Assembly: GCA_027023255.1 (NCBI GenBank)
Contig: JALVVU010000007.1
Location: forward strand, 6,888 to 70,887
Origin: Desulfurococcales archaeon
GTDB lineage: Archaea; Thermoproteota; Thermoprotei_A; Sulfolobales; NBVN01
Length of the DNA: 64,000 bases
Direction of reading: 5' to 3'
In this document: positions 15,652 through 62,780 of the stretch, in pieces
How positions within the stretch are numbered: position 1 is the stretch's first letter
Layout: every line of letters begins with the position of its first letter
The notes under the pieces: generated by a model
Told to the model about the DNA's origin: nothing
Database searches by the model: none
Seen by the model: only the letters and a program-made list of their open reading frames with translations
Translations under genes and position numbers: made by a program

Positions 15652-15754
15652 TGGTGGGGCCGCGGGGATTTGAACCCCGGACCACGGGGGTTCCTGCCGT
15701 CTTCCGTGTGAGCGGACCCAAGCCCCGCATTCTCCCAAGCTAAACTACGGCCCC
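15652..15754 (-). tRNA. tRNA-Pro (anticodon UGG) with ~26-nt intron after position 37; CCA encoded
   Basis: Manual fold of the reverse complement: GGGGCCG-TA-GTTT..GAAT-G-CGGGG-CT-TGG-G-[intron TCCGCTCACACGGAAGACGGCAGGAA]-C-CCCCG-TGGTC-CGGGG-TTCAAAT-CCCCG-CGGCCCC-A-CCA. Confidence 0.85.
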
Positions 15755-18779: not shown

Positions 18780-18889
18780 TGGTGCGGGGGGTGGGATTCG
18801 AACCCACGCAGGCCTCCGCCAGCGGGTCTCCCCACCTAGCCGGAAAGGTCTTGAGCCCGCCCCCTTTGGCCGAGCTCGGGCACCCCCGC
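18780..18889 (-). tRNA. tRNA-Leu (anticodon CAA), class II long variable arm, ~22-nt intron at 37/38; CCA encoded
   Basis: Reverse complement: GCGGGGG-TG-CCC..GGG-G-GCGGG-CT-CAA-G-[ACCTTTCCGGCTAGGTGGGGAG]-A-CCCGC-TGGCGGAGGCCTGC-GTGGG-TTCGAAT-CCCAC-CCCCCGC-A-CCA. Confidence 0.85.
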
Positions 18890-30126: not shown

Positions 30127-31245
30127 CCCGCCATGCATCACGTTAATCCTACGGACTATCTTAATCCCTGCCTCATCAGCTGCCCTCTCTAACGCCCTCA
30201 CCGCGGCTGTAATTAGCGCTAATCGTGCCTCCGGGAAGCGCTCGAAAAATACCTCTAAGAACTTCCTGTAGAACATGGGTAACTTCTTCGGGTTATGAAA
30301 CCTTATTCCGTAGGGCGGATTAACAGCGGCATAACGCACTTCAGTGTCTACGAGTGAGTAAGTCTTCCGTAGCGTTGAGTCGCCTTCAATGAATGTAGTG
30401 ACCCAAGCAACGTTGGCTGACGTCGCATTTAGGCGTGCGCCGGCTAAGTGCTTTGGGCTAGCATCAATGCAGTATGCGTGAATGTCCTTCGTTAACTCTA
30501 TCCTTGAGAGGAGATCTGTGATCGTATCGCGTTCGACTTGAGGGTCGTAGAGCTTTAGCTTCTTGTAAGCGTAGTCCTGCCTGAACAGAGTGATGGGCAT
30601 AGAGAGCGCTCTGTGGGCAGCCTCAATAACTATCGTGGCCCCGCCACACATGGGGTCCAGGAACGACCCTTCCTTGTAGTCCAGTAGCTCTAGTAGCGCG
30701 GCGGCTAACGTGGTCTTGAGTGCCGCTGGGTGGTCATACACTCTATACCTACGTCTGTGGAGCGATGTGCCGGTGGTGTTGATACCTATGATTAAGTCGT
30801 CATTTATTACGAAGGCATGTACCTCAACATCAGGTCTCCTTAGGTTAACCTTCAGCCTAACACCGGTTTCGCTCGCATACGACTCAATTATGCCCGCCCC
30901 AACCTCCCGCCCCACGTCAATACTGGTGAAATCATGCGTACCTACGCGCTCGGCCCTAACAGCGAAGGTTGCATTACTCTTAATGAATTCCATGTAGCTT
31001 AAGCTTTCGGCAATCTCCCTTATGTCACGTAAGGTTCTGAATTTAGTGTGGATTAATTCAATGAAGACCCTATTCACGGTTCGTAAGGTATTATTGCCTA
31101 CGTAAGTAAAGCGTTCGTCAGCAGTGAGGAATACCTTGCCAGGCGCGGTTGACTTCACGCTGACGCCTGCCTTACTCATTTCCTTAGCTACAAGGTCTTC
31201 CGTGCCCTGCGGAGCTGTACAGAAGTATCGTAACATCCCTAGCAC
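30094..31245 (-). CDS. THUMP-domain SAM-dependent RNA (tRNA guanine-N2-type) methyltransferase
   Basis: DPMCGGATIVIEAA (SAM motif I) and NPPYG (motif IV), with an N-terminal THUMP-like region. 383 aa. Confidence 0.8.
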   Translation of the reverse strand: MLGMLRYFCTAPQGTEDLVAKEMSKAGVSVKSTAPGKVFLTADERFTYVGNNTLRTVNRVFIELIHTKFRTLRDIREIAESLSYMEFIKSNATFAVRAERVGTHDFTSIDVGREVGAGIIESYASETGVRLKVNLRRPDVEVHAFVINDDLIIGINTTGTSLHRRRYRVYDHPAALKTTLAAALLELLDYKEGSFLDPMCGGATIVIEAAHRALSMPITLFRQDYAYKKLKLYDPQVERDTITDLLSRIELTKDIHAYCIDASPKHLAGARLNATSANVAWVTTFIEGDSTLRKTYSLVDTEVRYAAVNPPYGIRFHNPKKLPMFYRKFLEVFFERFPEARLALITAAVRALERAADEAGIKIVRRINVMHGGLRARMYLLSS

Positions 31246-31296
31246 ACTCCCAACGTTTAAGGCTGATTATCGGAAGCTCTCCAACATATGTGATTA

Positions 31297-31372
<76 letters not shown>

Positions 31373-31437
31373 TCCAGTCATTTGGATTAGTGAACCCTTA
31401 TTTTCTTTTCTACCCTTTGCTCTTTAGGTGAGTTAGG

Positions 31438-32814
31438 CTGACACACGTTAAACTGATCGCGTCTCTAGGGCCCGCTTCTAAAGATTTAGAAACAGTTATC
31501 AAGTTAGTTAACGCCGGCGCGTCGGGGTTCAGGATAAACTTCGCTCACGGAGATAGTAATTTCTGGAAAACCCTCGCTGACAACGTTAGGAAGGCTGAGG
31601 AAATAACAGGCAAGCCTTTGACGCTAATAACGGATCTCGAAGGATCCTCCATAAGGTTAGGTGAGTTACCTGAGCCCCTAACCTTGAGGAAGGGTGATAT
31701 CGCCAGGTTAGTTCCGCAGCAGAGAGCCGAAGAGCCGGGCACGATACCATTCCCAAACGAGAGAGTACTTTCTGAGCTTGAGGAGGGAGACATCCTAGTC
31801 ATGGATGATGGTAGGGTTAGGTTAAGGGTTGTTAAGGTTTCAGGTGATGAAGTTGAAGTCGCAGCCCTAACTGACGCTGTCATTAAGTCTCGCAAGGGAG
31901 TTGTTGTTCAGAACAAGGAGTTCGACCTCCCGGTCCTAACCAAGAAGGATTTAGAGGATATCAAGTTCGCCTGTAGTGTTGGGGCTGACTACATAGGGCT
32001 CAGCTACGTTAGGAACGCAGATAACGTGCGGGTATTGAAGGAACTGCTTAGGGAGATGAGGTGCGATGCCGGAGTAGTGGCTAAGATAGAGACAAGGTCA
32101 GCGGTCAAGAATGTTGAGGACATAGCGCATGTAGCTGACGTGATACTGGTTGCTAGGGGGGACTTAGGAATGAACTTTGGACTAGAGGAGATACCGAGGA
32201 TTCAAAGACGAATTGTTGAGGCCTCGCTGAGAATAGGTAAGCCCGTCATAGTAGCGACGCAGCTCCTGGAATCCATGGTTGAGAACCCCGTCCCGACGCG
32301 GGCTGAGGTTGTTGATACTTACGTTGCCGTGTCTGAGGGCGTTGACGCGTTAATGCTAACCGGGGAAACAGCCGCTGGCAAATACCCCGTTGAAGCAGTG
32401 AAGTGGTTACGCCGGATAGTTAGTAAGGCTGAGGCCAGTGAAAATGTGAGGACGTACAGGGAGGGTGGCCCACTGAAGAGAAGGTACGCTAAGGGTGTTG
32501 CCGAACTTGCAGAGGACTTGAACGCCAAGATAATAATATACTCATCAACGGGGGTCACCGCCCGCCACCTAGCATCAATAAGACCCAACGTGCCTTTCTA
32601 CGTGGCTGTGCCTAACATAAAGGTCGCTAGGTCAATAAACATACTGTGGGGAGTGAATCCTATAATAACTCCCACAAAGAACCATGAAGAAGGGCTTGAG
32701 GAGGCTTTCAAGAAACTCATCAGGATGGATGAGGTCTCAATAGGCGATCTAATAGTAATGACCTACGGCATGAAAGGTGAGGAGCAGGTAATCAAGGTTA
32801 GGCGCTACGTGTAA
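31438..32814 (+). CDS. pyk: Pyruvate kinase (start proposed at CTG 31438; track ORF begins at TTG 31618)
   Basis: Track ORF motifs: VAKIETRSAV, ILVARGDLGMNFGLEEIP, ATQLLESM, MLTGETAAGKYP. The frame is open from 31432 and encodes THVKLIASLGPASKDLETVIKLVNAGASGFRINFAHGD upstream of the first canonical start. Confidence 0.85.
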   Translation: MTHVKLIASLGPASKDLETVIKLVNAGASGFRINFAHGDSNFWKTLADNVRKAEEITGKPLTLITDLEGSSIRLGELPEPLTLRKGDIARLVPQQRAEEPGTIPFPNERVLSELEEGDILVMDDGRVRLRVVKVSGDEVEVAALTDAVIKSRKGVVVQNKEFDLPVLTKKDLEDIKFACSVGADYIGLSYVRNADNVRVLKELLREMRCDAGVVAKIETRSAVKNVEDIAHVADVILVARGDLGMNFGLEEIPRIQRRIVEASLRIGKPVIVATQLLESMVENPVPTRAEVVDTYVAVSEGVDALMLTGETAAGKYPVEAVKWLRRIVSKAEASENVRTYREGGPLKRRYAKGVAELAEDLNAKIIIYSSTGVTARHLASIRPNVPFYVAVPNIKVARSINILWGVNPIITPTKNHEEGLEEAFKKLIRMDEVSIGDLIVMTYGMKGEEQVIKVRRYV

Positions 32815-32892
32815 CGTTACCGAAACCTGAAAATGATTTTATACTGAACCACATTATGTGAAGCGGCTGAAGGGGAGGCGAGGTGAGTCAAA

Positions 32893-33708
32893 CTGACCAA
32901 GAAAAGAAAAAGAAGAGATAAGGGGGCAGGTAAGGTAATCGTTAAGAAGAAAGCAAGGATTTCACCCTCTATAAGAACTAGGAAAGTTAGGTGGGACCTA
33001 ATTATAGCTGCTGCAATAGTAGTATTCATAGCTGTAGGCGTGATCTACCTCGTAACTCACGCATCGAGGGAAACACCCCATCAACTAAAGCCAGCCACGG
33101 AGAATCTTTACAAGGCGCTTGAGGAAATATACTTCACAAACAAACCCAATCCTAACGCGACCCTAGACGTATTCTACGGCGTCAGAGGTAATGTTAACCT
33201 GAACGGCACGGTCTTCGGCGTCAAGGACATCATGCAGTTCAGAATATTCTTCTACAACAGGACACTCAAAGTACCAACAAATGAGAGCGGAACTTCCGGC
33301 AACAAAACCAAAATAGTCGTGTTGAGTGGGCACGGCGTCATACCCCTCGGTGCCTACTACATCCAACCAGTGTTAGACGTATTGGGCTTCACAAGTAAAG
33401 TTGAGAATATCTCAATGCTCCTAGTTAACGTTGAAAACCTCAAAAACCATAACGTAAGTGTAGAGACAAAATACCTCGGGCACGACAAGGTCACAATACC
33501 CACGGTTAAGGAGCCTTTAGATACCGTGAAGGTACAATATACATACACTATTAAAGTACACAACAAGACTTACCACGTTAACGCTACCGTATGGTACGAG
33601 ACTAAGTATAAGTTCCCTGTAAAGGCAGTCATAAATATTAATGGGTATACCTTGACGTTTAAGCTTGAGTACGCTGAGTTAACGTACTTAAGTCAGCGAA
33701 GAATCTGA
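32893..33708 (+). CDS. Type II membrane-anchored, N-glycosylation-rich extracellular protein (start proposed at CTG 32893; track ORF begins at GTG 33040)
   Basis: Nine N-x-S/T sequons in the track ORF. The in-frame upstream region (open from 32887) encodes a K/R-rich segment plus the only TM helix (WDLIIAAAIVVFIAVGVIYLV). There is no ATG/GTG/TTG before 33040. Confidence 0.5.
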   Translation: MTKKRKRRDKGAGKVIVKKKARISPSIRTRKVRWDLIIAAAIVVFIAVGVIYLVTHASRETPHQLKPATENLYKALEEIYFTNKPNPNATLDVFYGVRGNVNLNGTVFGVKDIMQFRIFFYNRTLKVPTNESGTSGNKTKIVVLSGHGVIPLGAYYIQPVLDVLGFTSKVENISMLLVNVENLKNHNVSVETKYLGHDKVTIPTVKEPLDTVKVQYTYTIKVHNKTYHVNATVWYETKYKFPVKAVININGYTLTFKLEYAELTYLSQRRI

Positions 33709-33770: not shown

Positions 33771-34631
33771 GTGAGTATGGCCTCAAACCCGCCCTCAAGT
33801 AAGATAAGGATTCACATGCCGCGTGAATACTTAGAGAGGAAAAAGAAGCTCCAAGAACGAATGTCTAAGATAAGGCACAAGATAGTCATAATGTCTGGCA
33901 AAGGTGGCGTCGGGAAATCCTTCATAGCGTCCAGCCTTGCACTAACCTTCCAGAAGCTAGGTTACAGAACCGGGCTCATGGATATTGACTTCCATGGCCC
34001 CTCCGCCCCGAAGATGCTGGGATTAAGGGGAACTAGGCTAATCATGTCGGATGAAGGTATAGAGCCTGCCCTAGGACCTCTAGGACTTAAGGTGATGTCC
34101 CTAGACTTCCTACTCCCAGACGATGATTCACCAGTGATATGGCGTGGGCCAATCAAGTCTACCGCGATAACACAGTTCGTGACAGACGTTAATTGGGGAG
34201 AGCTTGATTTCCTAGTAATTGACATGCCACCAGGCACTGGTGATGAAGCACTAACCGTTGCTCAGGAGCTTCCGGAAGTGGACGGAGCCGTATTTGTGAC
34301 TATCCCTTCTGAGGTTTCGCTCCTCGTTGTCGGTAGGTCAATCGTCTTTGCTAGGAGGGTAAACATAAGACCCTTAGGAGTTATAGAGAATATGTCTGGC
34401 TTCCTCTGCCCTAAGTGTGGCTCGTTCTACAGAATCTTCGGTAAGAGCTCCGGTAGGGAAATAGCTAGCAAATATGGAATAGAGTTCCTCGGTGAAATAC
34501 CGCTAGACCCGAGGATAGCTGAATGCAATGACGCTGGAACACCATTCATACTGAAATATCCGGACTCTGAAGTGTCTAAGCGTTTTGCGGAGGCTGCCCA
34601 GCATCTAGTCAAGATAGTTAGCAATGTGTAA
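33771..34631 (+). CDS. Mrp/NBP35/ApbC-family Fe-S cluster carrier ATPase
   Basis: Deviant Walker A MSGKGGVGKS, DMPPGTGDE, and CPKCG cluster-binding cysteines. Confidence 0.85.
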   Translation: MSMASNPPSSKIRIHMPREYLERKKKLQERMSKIRHKIVIMSGKGGVGKSFIASSLALTFQKLGYRTGLMDIDFHGPSAPKMLGLRGTRLIMSDEGIEPALGPLGLKVMSLDFLLPDDDSPVIWRGPIKSTAITQFVTDVNWGELDFLVIDMPPGTGDEALTVAQELPEVDGAVFVTIPSEVSLLVVGRSIVFARRVNIRPLGVIENMSGFLCPKCGSFYRIFGKSSGREIASKYGIEFLGEIPLDPRIAECNDAGTPFILKYPDSEVSKRFAEAAQHLVKIVSNV

Positions 34632-34705: not shown

Positions 34706-36031
34706 ATGATATTTACTTGGGATGTAAACATGGGATTCGAATGGTATAACGAGTTCGTAGACAGGAACCATAAGCCAAGCAGCGATGAATTAATTGCGGT
34801 GTTTAAGGCTAAGCCTGCTGAAGGTCTCACAATGGATGACATAGCAGGAAGGATCGCGTCAGAGAGCAGCGTCGGTACTTGGACCACGCTAACGACGCTA
34901 AAGCCACACGTACGTAAGATCATGGCTAAGGCATACGTTGTCCGTGAGGACGGCTTAATTAAGGTAGCGTACCCTCTAGACCTCTTTGAACTTGGGTCAA
35001 TACCCCAGCTCTTCAGCTCAGTACTGGGTAACATCTTCGGCATGAGAGCCATAAAGAGCTTGAAAGTGCTTGACATAATGTTCCCTGAGAAATACGTCAA
35101 GTCATTCCCTGGACCCTCATTCGGTATTAGCGGCGTCCGCGACAAGCTTAAGGTCTATAAGCGCCCAATACTTGCGACAGTGCCTAAGCCTAAGGTCGGA
35201 CTAACTTCAGAAGAGTACGGTGAAGCAGCGTATGAGATCCTAAGCGGCGGGATGGACCTAGTGAAGGACGACGAGAACCTAACTAACCAACCATTCAACC
35301 GCTTCGAAAAGAGGCTAGCTGCCGTGATGAAGGCCATAGATAAGGCCGAGAAGGAGACCGGTGAGAAGAAGGGATACCTATGCAACATAACGGCACCAAC
35401 GCTGGAGGAGATGCTACGTAGGATGAAACTTGTCGCTGATTACGGTAACGAATTCATAATGCTTGACATCCTGACGGTCGGCTGGGCAGCGGTTCAGACG
35501 GCTAGGGAGCACGCAGCCGACTATAAGCTAGCAATACATGCGCACAGGGCATTCCACGCAGCATTTACTAGGCCGAAAGAACATGGAGTGAGCTTCTACC
35601 TAATAGCTAAGATATCAAGGCTTGCTGGAGTGGATCACATCCACATAGGGACTAACGTAGGTAAAATGGAAACGGACCTGAAGGAACTGAAGCTAACACA
35701 GAACGTCATAACTCAGGAAGACTTCAACCCCGAAGGTGACGAGACAAAGGAACCACAGAAGTGGTATGGCCTCAAGCCTGTCCTCCCCGTAGCATCAGGA
35801 GGGCTCCATCCTGGCGTACTACCGCAACTGCTTGACTTCATGGGTTCCGACATACTAATACAGGTAGGGGGAGGCGTTACAGGGCACCCGAGCGGTCCCA
35901 AGGCCGGAGGAATAGCGGTGCGTCAAGCCCTAGAGGCATACTATAGTGGCGTCCCGCTAGAAGAGTATGCTAAGACGCATAAGGAGCTAAGGGAAGCACT
36001 AGAGAAGTGGGGTAAGGTTAGACCTGAGTGA
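34706..36031 (+). CDS. rbcL: Ribulose-1,5-bisphosphate carboxylase/oxygenase large subunit, archaeal type III
   Basis: Collinear with my memory of the Thermococcus kodakarensis type III enzyme: ESSVGTWTTL, GNIFGM, VPKPKVGL, VKDDENLTNQ, AIHAHRAFHAAFTR, ASGGLHPG, VGGGVTGHPSGP, EYAKTHKELREALEKWG. The start may be ATG 34730. Confidence 0.9.
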   Translation: MIFTWDVNMGFEWYNEFVDRNHKPSSDELIAVFKAKPAEGLTMDDIAGRIASESSVGTWTTLTTLKPHVRKIMAKAYVVREDGLIKVAYPLDLFELGSIPQLFSSVLGNIFGMRAIKSLKVLDIMFPEKYVKSFPGPSFGISGVRDKLKVYKRPILATVPKPKVGLTSEEYGEAAYEILSGGMDLVKDDENLTNQPFNRFEKRLAAVMKAIDKAEKETGEKKGYLCNITAPTLEEMLRRMKLVADYGNEFIMLDILTVGWAAVQTAREHAADYKLAIHAHRAFHAAFTRPKEHGVSFYLIAKISRLAGVDHIHIGTNVGKMETDLKELKLTQNVITQEDFNPEGDETKEPQKWYGLKPVLPVASGGLHPGVLPQLLDFMGSDILIQVGGGVTGHPSGPKAGGIAVRQALEAYYSGVPLEEYAKTHKELREALEKWGKVRPE

Positions 36032-61476: not shown

Positions 61477-61564
61477 TGGCGCCGGGGGCGGGATTTGAAC
61501 CCGCGCGGGGGTGTACCCCACCGGCTTAGCAGGCCGGCGCCCTACCGGGCTAGGCGACCCCGGC
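61477..61564 (-). tRNA. tRNA-Ser (anticodon GCU), class II, intron-less, CCA encoded
   Basis: Reverse complement: GCCGGGG-TC-GCCT-AGCCCGGTA-GGGC-G-CCGGC-CT-GCT-AA-GCCGG-TGGGGTACACCCCCGC-GCGGG-TTCAAAT-CCCGC-CCCCGGC-G-CCA (88 nt). Confidence 0.9.
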
Positions 61565-61576
61565 TCCGTAAGGTTC

Positions 61577-61819
61577 TTACTTGAGCGGGGTTATAAGTGT
61601 TGTTAGTGTTTGAGTTATGGTTATTTCGAGTCCCTCGTCTAGGGCTTTTAGTTTTATTGCTTTTTGTGGGCATATTGCTTCGCAGCCGCGACAGTATATG
61701 CAGTTGTTTTCGTTTATTATTAGTTTCTGGTTCACTATCTGGAAAACATTTGTTGGGCAGGTTTCCTCGCATAGGCCGCACAGGTTGCAGTTATTGTTTA
61801 CCTTGACTTCCACTTTCAT
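61577..61819 (-). CDS. 2x[4Fe-4S] dicluster ferredoxin-type protein
   Basis: CNLCGLCEETCP and CIYCRGCEAICP. Its start overlaps the 3' end of the upstream KaiC-like gene by 29 nt. Confidence 0.8.
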   Translation of the reverse strand: MKVEVKVNNNCNLCGLCEETCPTNVFQIVNQKLIINENNCIYCRGCEAICPQKAIKLKALDEGLEITITQTLTTLITPLK

Positions 61820-62636
61820 GCCTTGCTTCCTCCCCCGTTATCGCTGCTTTGTAGGCTTCAGCCTCTTTCAGCCTTTCCCTGACAAGGGCTGCTAGCTTTG
61901 CTGGATCGACGGCGTGGACCCCATCATCGATTATTGCGTAAGGTACCCATAACGGATTAGTTGGTAATCCCCTCATTTTCTTGGCCATGAGTTGCTTCAG
62001 CGGTATGCCTAACTCTATTAGGTTTGGCTCTATGCGCGTCGCTATAACGCCGTCGACAAGATATTCTAGATGTGCCGCGAGCTCCTCTAGCACTGTGGTG
62101 TTAGTGTGTAGAATCATCACTATCGTGGCTCCCTTACCCTTAGATATTATTGCCCGCATCGACTTAATGAACTCTAATACCTGCATCATCTCAAAACGGA
62201 ACATTAACTCGTTTATCGAGTCAATAACAACGAGGCTAACAACGTCGTCACTAGCTGGCGGAACCTCCTCATGCAGGGCATAAAGCATGCTGTTCAGGTC
62301 GTCGAGACGCTGCTCCCTCGTAACGCCCTTCACTGCCCTCTTTAACTTACCTAACCTGAAGCTGAAGCAGTCAATTATCTTGAACTTGCCCTCATCAATG
62401 AACTTATCTAGCCCCCACCCAAAGTTCGTGAAGAGCTCTATTAGTGCGTCGGGAGAATCATCGAGGTTAACGTAGGTTACATAACCACCTCCCTTCAGCA
62501 CGTTCCACGCTATGTGCGCAGCCAAAACCGACTTACCTGTTCCCGGCGCCCCCGTGATAGCTACCGTGGCGCTTCTAGGGAAGCCTGCAGGTAACGCGTA
62601 ATCTAGGGGCTCAATACCTGTTTTGAATGCCTTAAT
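61791..62636 (-). CDS. KaiC/RecA-superfamily single-domain ATPase (start proposed at ATT 62636; track ORF begins at TTG 62525)
   Basis: The Walker A ITGAPGTGKS and the preceding KAFKTGIEPLDYALPAGFPRSATVA lie upstream of the first canonical start in an open frame. Walker B is VVIDSINEL. Confidence 0.75.
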   Translation of the reverse strand: MKAFKTGIEPLDYALPAGFPRSATVAITGAPGTGKSVLAAHIAWNVLKGGGYVTYVNLDDSPDALIELFTNFGWGLDKFIDEGKFKIIDCFSFRLGKLKRAVKGVTREQRLDDLNSMLYALHEEVPPASDDVVSLVVIDSINELMFRFEMMQVLEFIKSMRAIISKGKGATIVMILHTNTTVLEELAAHLEYLVDGVIATRIEPNLIELGIPLKQLMAKKMRGLPTNPLWVPYAIIDDGVHAVDPAKLAALVRERLKEAEAYKAAITGEEARHESGSQGKQ

Positions 62637-62780
62637 GACCCATCACCCTCCTAGAAAGGACTTCTCACGTAAACTAACTTAACTACCTAGAATAAAACAC
62701 TAACTTCCAAGACGCGTCTATTGCATAGCTCAATGAATTATTAATTAAGCTCCCTAGGTTAGGTTAGTGGTGCTGTCATC

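Follow-up and report, generated by a model that had tools for sequence, protein, structure and literature searches.

In bacteria, translation is known to begin at CTG in plasmid RepA of E. coli and in RpsL and Deide_03051 of the Deinococcus-Thermus group, and at other near-cognate codons in infC (AUU) and in Deinococcus dnaA (ATC) (PMC2830850). In archaea a first-position mismatch with the initiator tRNA is tolerated at GUG and UUG (PMC7531240, PMC2830850); TTG is the commonest start in Aeropyrum pernix (PMC2830850), a relative of the organism considered here, and ribosome profiling of Haloferax volcanii gave about 30% near-cognate alternative sites, which were set aside (PMC7261190). CUG, unlike GUG and UUG, is outside the accepted archaeal start codons, and no documented archaeal CTG start was found in the literature searched. 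Here we analyse a gene for a membrane glycoprotein within a 64 kb stretch (48% GC; hereafter the window) of contig JALVVU010000007.1 from an uncultured Desulfurococcales archaeon of hydrothermal vents. The comparative evidence points to CTG 32893 as its initiation codon, used by Shine-Dalgarno (SD)-directed initiation at CUG, and we put the probability of this at roughly 0.78.

Like the bacterial CTG starts, this would be a near-cognate CUG start that is recognised through conserved N-terminal residues lying 5' of any canonical start; it is likewise conserved among related genomes and has a ribosome-binding site upstream. It differs from them in its host, a crenarchaeon with eukaryotic-type initiation factors (aIF1, aIF1A, aIF2), and in that the bacterial starts have peptide evidence, whereas the CTG of the window is proposed on comparative evidence. 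With archaeal GUG and UUG initiation it would share the tolerated first-position mismatch, the ancestral codon here being TTG. The locus would therefore add to a kind already known in bacteria a conserved and well-supported crenarchaeal CUG start, which has two companions close by (in a pyruvate kinase gene and a KaiC/RecA-like ATPase gene).

The open reading frame (ORF) called for this gene runs from GTG 33040 to 33708 and has 222 codons. The original prediction, made from the letters of the window, held that the same frame is open upstream of this GTG and lacks a canonical start there, and this is borne out: the frame is open from 32887, directly after a TGA stop at 32884-86, the window sequence contains no in-frame ATG, GTG or TTG between that TGA and GTG 33040, and the encoded peptide is exactly as quoted there. 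After the stop the frame reads GTC AAA CTG(32893-95) ACC AAG AAA AGA. The sequence likewise agrees with the prediction in placing GGTGA at 32882-86, 6 nt 5' of CTG 32893, in placing GTG 33040 within the only transmembrane (TM) helix of the protein (32998..33054), and in the count of nine N-x-S/T sequons. The same sequence was also found in independent assemblies (L001, L020, L007, L008-11/L021, L012/13 and L023; L numbers are used here for related loci), so that an assembly or sequencing error is rejected.

It is virtually certain, judging from related sequences, that translation in this frame includes the 49 codons 5' of GTG 33040 and that the N-terminal extension is real. Eight distinct sequences were compared as close relatives (the window, L020, L007, L008, L012, L023, L002 and L006), and selection was assessed over 39 gap-free codons that end just before 33040. 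In this segment pN/pS was 0.06-0.41 with pS up to 0.76, and the variable columns were distributed 10/10/29 over codon positions 1, 2 and 3. The CTG follows the conserved promoter block by 33-35 nt, with differences of frame between relatives, and indels 3' of the CTG in the alignment are only 3n in length; since the upstream distance is not a multiple of three and only 3n indels follow, the frame would begin at the CTG. Furthermore, all 11 homologues found by a word-indexed search, excepting those truncated by gene callers, have M-x-K-K-R-K-E-x-G-K-V-I-V-K-K followed by one TM helix, and the same layout of tail and TM helix is seen in the 12 representatives with sequence retrieved, of 17 clusters found by an exhaustive search. 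K12, G15 and K16 are invariant across the family homologues. The proposal that the upstream segment belongs to the protein, for which orthologues lacking the segment had been named as the refuting observation, is thus supported, as every homologue has it.

These data bear directly on the public annotation, in which GTG 33040 would be the true start and the upstream frame non-coding, and on the related idea of a pseudogene decaying in this lineage. In favour of GTG 33040, it is a canonical codon and the gene callers' choice (entry P0003). Such a start is nevertheless highly improbable: the codon is not conserved, being replaced by GTA or ACG in four of the eight relatives (L020, L008, L012 and L023), it has no SD, and its use would remove the TM helix from a protein with nine sequons and a LolA-like exported-protein fold (a weak match). 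The pN/pS of about 0.2 over the upstream 39 codons, together with the family-wide conservation, also contradicts it. Which codon is the first canonical one in frame varies by lineage (45, 51, 95 or 115), and this is why the public entries of this protein have 177, 222, 228 or 233 amino acids. Readthrough or recoding of TGA, with translation from ATG 32833, which shares the frame, is more improbable still. The ribosome would have to pass two TGA codons (32845 and 32884), TGA is an ordinary stop in 19 of 50 window genes, and the region between this ATG and the CTG has non-3n indels among the relatives as well as the conserved TATA block.

Several features of the alignment then single out the CTG itself. 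In six lineages (the window, L020, L007, L008, L012 and L023) a TGA lies three codons 5' of the CTG with no ATG, GTG or TTG between, and in the window, L020, L007, L008 and L012 no in-frame canonical start occurs through the whole conserved segment; in L023 the stretch free of canonical starts extends only to K-V-I-V, with GTG as the V codon. A start at the CTG position had been predicted, and where orthologues have one of the canonical starts (TTG, in L014, L016/L024 and L017), it does stand at the codon aligned with the CTG. In the outgroups L016/L024 and L017 this TTG is two codons past a TGA and is the sole possible start, and in L014 it stands in the arrangement GAGGTG-N6-TTG. The CTG also aligns with the Met of the family-typical N-terminus M-[TSA]-K-K-R-K. 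Among 16 Leu columns conserved in the eight close relatives, only that of CTG 32893 is codon-invariant, the other 15 drifting among CTN and TTR.

Alternatively, initiation could take place at another non-canonical codon 3' of the CTG, for example at ATC 32937 in K-V-I-V or at an AAG or AGA codon, giving a shorter tail that keeps the TM helix. In-frame ATH codons exist, ATC 32937 has a weak AGGT 6 nt ahead of it, and some distant homologues have shorter tails. We regard this as very unlikely: the codons from CTG to ATC are under purifying selection, the GCN GGN of the invariant G-K motif varying only at third positions, the invariant K12 and G15 lie upstream of ATC 32937, and no strong SD precedes this ATC or the AAG and AGA codons. 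AAG and AGA are, moreover, very poor initiators. On the sequences compared, the downstream near-cognate, GTG 33040, pseudogene and readthrough explanations are all contradicted by the conservation data.

The position of the CTG relative to the SD is that of ordinary starts in the window. The SD matches the anti-SD complement over 7 nt, and GGTGA followed by 6 nt is the commonest spacing among the canonical SD-led genes of the window, accounting for 6 of about 10. GGTGA-N6-[A/G/T]TG occurs 14 times against 4.9 expected, a number reached in none of 100 shuffles. A scan for GGTGA-N6-CTG, which the original prediction had proposed for the genome and which was run on the window, gave no overall enrichment (4 sites against 2.0 expected), but two of the four sites stand at the opening of long conserved ORFs without a canonical start. 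The first canonical starts of about 47 long window ORFs are ATG in 24, GTG in 13 and TTG in 10, so first-base discrimination appears relaxed in the window. In many window genes without an SD a TATA-like box stands about 25-30 nt ahead of the gene, so that their mRNAs may be leaderless.

Starts were surveyed in window ORFs of at least 120 codons for those with more than 35 codons open 5' of the first canonical start. The only plausible genes to emerge were those for pyruvate kinase (PK), the membrane glycoprotein and the KaiC-like ATPase; the others overlap longer ORFs. The PK frame opens at 31432 after a TGA and reads GTT AGG CTG(31438) ACA CAC GTT AAA CTG ATC GCG TCT CTA GGG CCC. With the CTG start the protein covers positions 3-328 of the Pfam PK model, whereas from the first canonical start, TTG 31618, it begins at position 63. 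A GGTG-N6-YTG arrangement is kept in the PK outgroups (L017, GAGGTG gatgtc CTG; L019, GGTG ttgagt CTG; L027, AGGTG cataac TTG). The GTG inside the PK SD (31428) is out of frame, reading GTG AGT TAG; the start region GTG A GTT AGR CTG is common to the window, L008/L021 and L023, and in L002 and L006 the GTG is in frame. A TATA-like box at 31398-31405 lies 30 nt before this GTG. Transcription of PK may thus start at the SD-like GGTGA, and in L002 and L006 the in-frame GTG may serve as a leaderless start.

The likeness of the PK and glycoprotein cassettes, adduced in the original prediction, is real, 14 of 18 positions matching, and AGGTGAGTnnnnCTGAC has just two occurrences in the 64 kb, at 31426 ahead of PK and at 32881 ahead of the glycoprotein gene, against 0.00 expected (100 shuffles). 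As evidence it is weaker than was implied, because much of it follows from shared function: the SD (6 nt), the CTG (3 nt) and the AC of a Thr codon (2 nt). Duplication or gene conversion was considered as its source and rejected, as no similarity extends past the 18 nt. A separate observation concerns the glycoprotein cassettes of L023 (2950-2970) and L012 (495-515), (A/G)GGTGAGTTAGGCTGAC, which are identical over 16-17 nt to the PK cassette of the window (31426-31442). The shared sequence, AGGTGAGTTAGGCTGAC, matches at 17 of 17 nt with the spacer GTTAGG included; this could be due to chance or to selection on the spacer. The GT that follows GGTGR is conserved in all orthologues of the glycoprotein gene.

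In the KaiC-like gene, on the minus strand, GGAGGGTGA is followed by 6 nt and then by ATT 62636. The first canonical start, TTG 62525, comes only after the Walker A motif (GAPGTGKS). A protein begun at the ATT covers the KaiC model from position 2, and one begun at the TTG from position 38. A 94% identical orthologue from another metagenome (L028) has an identical start region, and its database entry (P0012) is also truncated. The apparent ATT behind a strong SD resembles the starts of infC and dnaA, with the contrast that there is no evidence of autoregulation in the window gene. An alternative start for the KaiC-like gene is ATG 62643 plus one extra G.

Several observations weigh against initiation at CTG 32893. 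Both L002 and L006 have an upstream in-frame GTG and, on their sequences, may need no CTG. No lineage has reverted the CTG to TTG, despite a pS of 0.1-0.76, which is hard to explain if TTG is at least an equally good start. Reviews of archaeal initiation name only AUG, GUG and UUG (PMC7531240, PMC4705826), and aIF1 of S. solfataricus discriminates against AUU in vitro (PMC4705826). In the KaiC-like gene, skipping one base gives M-V-I-K-A-F-K-T-G, the same length as the N-termini of its orthologues (M-x-I-K/R-x-F-K-T-G). Finally, RTG-N-GTY can be read in all three window genes and in seven of the eight orthologues of the glycoprotein gene.

The last two points belong to the main rival explanation, in which translation starts at the canonical GTG 32883 within GGTGA (GTG 31428 in PK, ATG 62643 in the KaiC-like gene) and an obligatory +1 shift follows at the first elongation step. 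A start codon, one extra base and the ORF can be read in succession in each case (GTG A GTC in the glycoprotein gene, GTG A GTT in PK, ATG G GTC in the KaiC-like gene), and there are relatives without the extra base, namely the glycoprotein gene of L006 (GTG GTT GGG CTG) and PK of L002 and L006 (GTG AGC/AGT ... CTG). The 30 nt between the TATA-like box and the PK GTG are as expected of a leaderless GTG start, which would place this GTG at the predicted transcription start near 31427. GGAGG lies 4 nt before GTG 32883 and might be an initiation signal of its own. A formal parallel is yeast Ty3, in which GCG_AGU_U yields Ala-Val by a +1 shift (PMC5009743). If true, the reading would amount to a start-proximal recoding mechanism undescribed in any domain.

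It is, nonetheless, very unlikely. GGTGA with a 6-nt spacer makes the out-of-frame GTG and the in-frame TGA automatic, at no cost to initiation at the CTG, whereas under a shift the three exact SD-N6 placements become coincidences. No slow A-site codon is present, AGT supplying 18% of Ser codons and GGT being the most used Gly codon (29%), and the initiator anticodon is unable to re-pair in the +1 frame. The outgroups L016/L017 have only a TTG, at the CTG position, and the family N-termini fit M-T-K-K rather than M-V-K-L-T-K-K. The supposed codons 2 and 3 (GTY, then AAA/AAG/AGG/GGG) are poorly conserved. The zero-frame stop at codon 3 is found only in L007, L012 and L023, L006 is without a shift, and no conserved shift heptamer with a slow or stop codon in its A site is seen. 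The likeness to yeast Ty3 (GCG_AGU_U) and bacterial prfB (CUU_UGA_C) (PMC5009743) is formal only, consisting of GUG_AGU_C/U with a +1-frame Val and an SD-like sequence nearby; unlike in those systems, the shift would fall at the very first elongation step, with no rare codon and no re-pairing, at a site that is not in all orthologues.

Initiation at CUG 32893 could proceed as follows. The gene would have its own promoter. The TATA element of crenarchaeal promoters usually lies at -26/-27 from the transcription start and, given the putative TATA box at 32837-44, transcription would start near 32865-32870 and leave a leader of about 25 nt. GAGGUGA in this leader would pair with the 16S rRNA 3' end and position the small ribosomal subunit, so that the CUG, 6 nt downstream, would be placed in the P site. 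Initiator Met-tRNA would then begin translation at this codon despite the mismatch at its first base, as happens at GUG and UUG. GTG and TTG together make up about half of the starts in the window, and the use of CUG would extend a tolerance already exploited for these codons. The CTG would have arisen from an ancestral TTG start by one transition and have been retained through species-level divergence. The same mechanism most likely serves PK (CTG 31438) and the KaiC-like ATPase (ATT 62636).

A short out-of-frame ORF also lies in this region, at 32858-32896 (+), GTG AAG CGG CTG AAG GGG AGG CGA GGT GAG TCA AAC TGA; its TGA (32894-96) overlaps the CTG start as CTGA, and in L002 the GTG equivalent to 32858 is in frame and is called as the start. 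Coupling through this upstream ORF was rejected as a general explanation, as PK has no such ORF and L023 is without it. Only about 14 nt past the TATA box, the GTG at 32858 is probably not transcribed.

Likelier than such recoding, and somewhat more probable than not, is a wider reading in which selection maintains CUG and AUU as regular start codons in an archaeal clade, affecting about 5% of genes and systematically truncating the annotations of metagenome-assembled genomes (MAGs). NCBI translation table 11 lists CTG, ATT and ATC as initiators. Prodigal and similar gene callers nevertheless ignore CTG, and truncated database entries result. The public entries P0003 (222 aa), P0004, P0005 and P0006 (177 aa) are N-terminally truncated, with the membrane anchor lost. 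From the corresponding PK entries (398 aa) 60 residues are missing at the start of the barrel domain, and P0012, the KaiC-like entry, is without Walker A; inferences of localisation, structure or metabolism drawn from such entries are consequently wrong. That this CUG is conserved, and that a further CUG and an AUU probably serve as starts in the same 64 kb, suggests an SD-positioned P site tolerant of all four first bases in this lineage. The combination of SD, N6 and near-cognate codon with an alignment of orthologue N-termini could serve as a rule for rescuing truncated genes in archaeal MAGs.

With the CTG start the protein is, as its sequence indicates, a type II (N-in) glycoprotein of 271 aa, anchored in the membrane and belonging to a small family found in Desulfurococcales. 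It has one strong TM segment, residues 36-54, with a Kyte-Doolittle mean of 3.13, preceded by 16 K/R against 1 D/E in residues 1-34, and so shows the single N-terminal TM helix with a positive cytoplasmic flank of a type II signal-anchor. That the CTG start is needed for the anchor, as had been proposed, was upheld when both versions were compared by Kyte-Doolittle, the version from GTG 33040 reaching a maximum of 1.27. Pfam and NCBIfam gave no family match for the glycoprotein, and the family comprises 17 clusters at 50% identity among 1.84 billion representatives. In an AlphaFold2 model from an 8-sequence alignment (pLDDT 76.7, pTM 0.65), residues 34-56 form a TM helix and the ectodomain is rich in beta structure. 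Foldseek matched the ectodomain only weakly, to half barrels of the LolA/LolB/LprG/RseB/YmcC type, with a best E of 3e-4, TM-scores of 0.2-0.46 and an rmsd above 11 Å. The LolA/LolB/LprG/RseB-like proteins are also exported or anchored; the likeness is at the level of the fold only, with no sequence similarity. These results are consistent with a domain that binds a lipid or ligand outside the cytoplasm, in keeping with the need of an anchor; they do not assign the protein to a family.

The orthologous loci belong to MAGs of uncultured Desulfurococcales recovered from hydrothermal metagenomes. The conserved gene order is THUMP methyltransferase (-), tRNA-Thr (-), PK (+), membrane glycoprotein (+), Mrp/ApbC-type Fe-S carrier ATPase (+), form III RuBisCO (+) and spermidine synthase (-), and the order PK, membrane protein, Mrp is kept even in relatives of only 36-48% identity. 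Coordinates are collected in Table 1.

Table 1. Features of the window discussed in the text (positions in the 64 kb window)
Feature	Position	Strand	Remarks
Putative archaeal TATA box, TTTTATAC	32837..32844	+	In block CTGAAAATGATTTTATACTGAACC, nearly invariant in 8 close relatives
Shine-Dalgarno GAGGTGA	32880..32886	+	Last 3 bases are the in-frame stop TGA 32884-86; GGTG invariant in 8 relatives
6-nt spacer GTCAAA	32887..32892	+	Fast-evolving in relatives: GTTAAA, GTTAGG, GTCAAG, GTTGGG
Proposed initiation codon CTG	32893..32895	+	Invariant in 8 lineages; aligned with outgroup TTG starts and family Met
Proposed corrected coding sequence (CDS), 271 aa	32893..33708	+	K/R-rich cytoplasmic tail, signal-anchor TM helix, ectodomain of about 210 aa with 9 sequons
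Cytoplasmic tail, residues 2-34	32896..32994	+	Bears family-invariant K-x-x-G-K (KGAGKVIVKKK)
Single TM helix, residues 36-54	32998..33054	+	Kyte-Doolittle; helix 34-56 in AlphaFold model
GTG, start in public annotation (P0003, 222 aa)	33040..33042	+	Internal Val codon, not conserved as GTG
PK sister cassette, AGGTGAGTTAGGCTGACA	31426..31443	+	CTG 31438 6 nt after GGTGA
Pyruvate kinase CDS from CTG	31438-32814	+	Start at or near CTG 31438 needed
KaiC/RecA-like ATPase	61791..62636	-	Probable ATT start 62636-34, 6 nt after GGTGA 62647-43; frame 62642..61791
Canonical SD-led genes with 6-nt spacing	1933, 6439, 8194, 21719, 24632, 37771
Mrp/ApbC-type Fe-S cluster carrier ATPase	33771-34631	+	Downstream neighbour
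Form III RuBisCO large subunit	34706-36031	+	Downstream neighbour
Intron-containing tRNA Pro(UGG)	15655-15754	-	Rfam match, missed by ARAGORN; anticodon read by eye
Intron-containing tRNA Leu(CAA)	18783-18889	-	Rfam match, missed by ARAGORN; anticodon read by eye
tRNA-Thr(CGU)	31297-31372	-	ARAGORN
tRNA-Ser(GCU)	61477-61564		ARAGORN

The two additional tRNAs found by Rfam were considered as candidates for the initiator tRNA and rejected, being Pro(UGG) and Leu(CAA). An Rfam scan of 31000-33400 returned no known RNA element besides tRNA-Thr and a sub-threshold antisense hit. This hit, to 'Plastid-ycf2 5UTR' at 31299-31372 (+), scored 39 bits against a gathering threshold of 65.7. It occupies precisely the antisense strand of tRNA-Thr and is almost surely an artefact due to tRNA-like structure.

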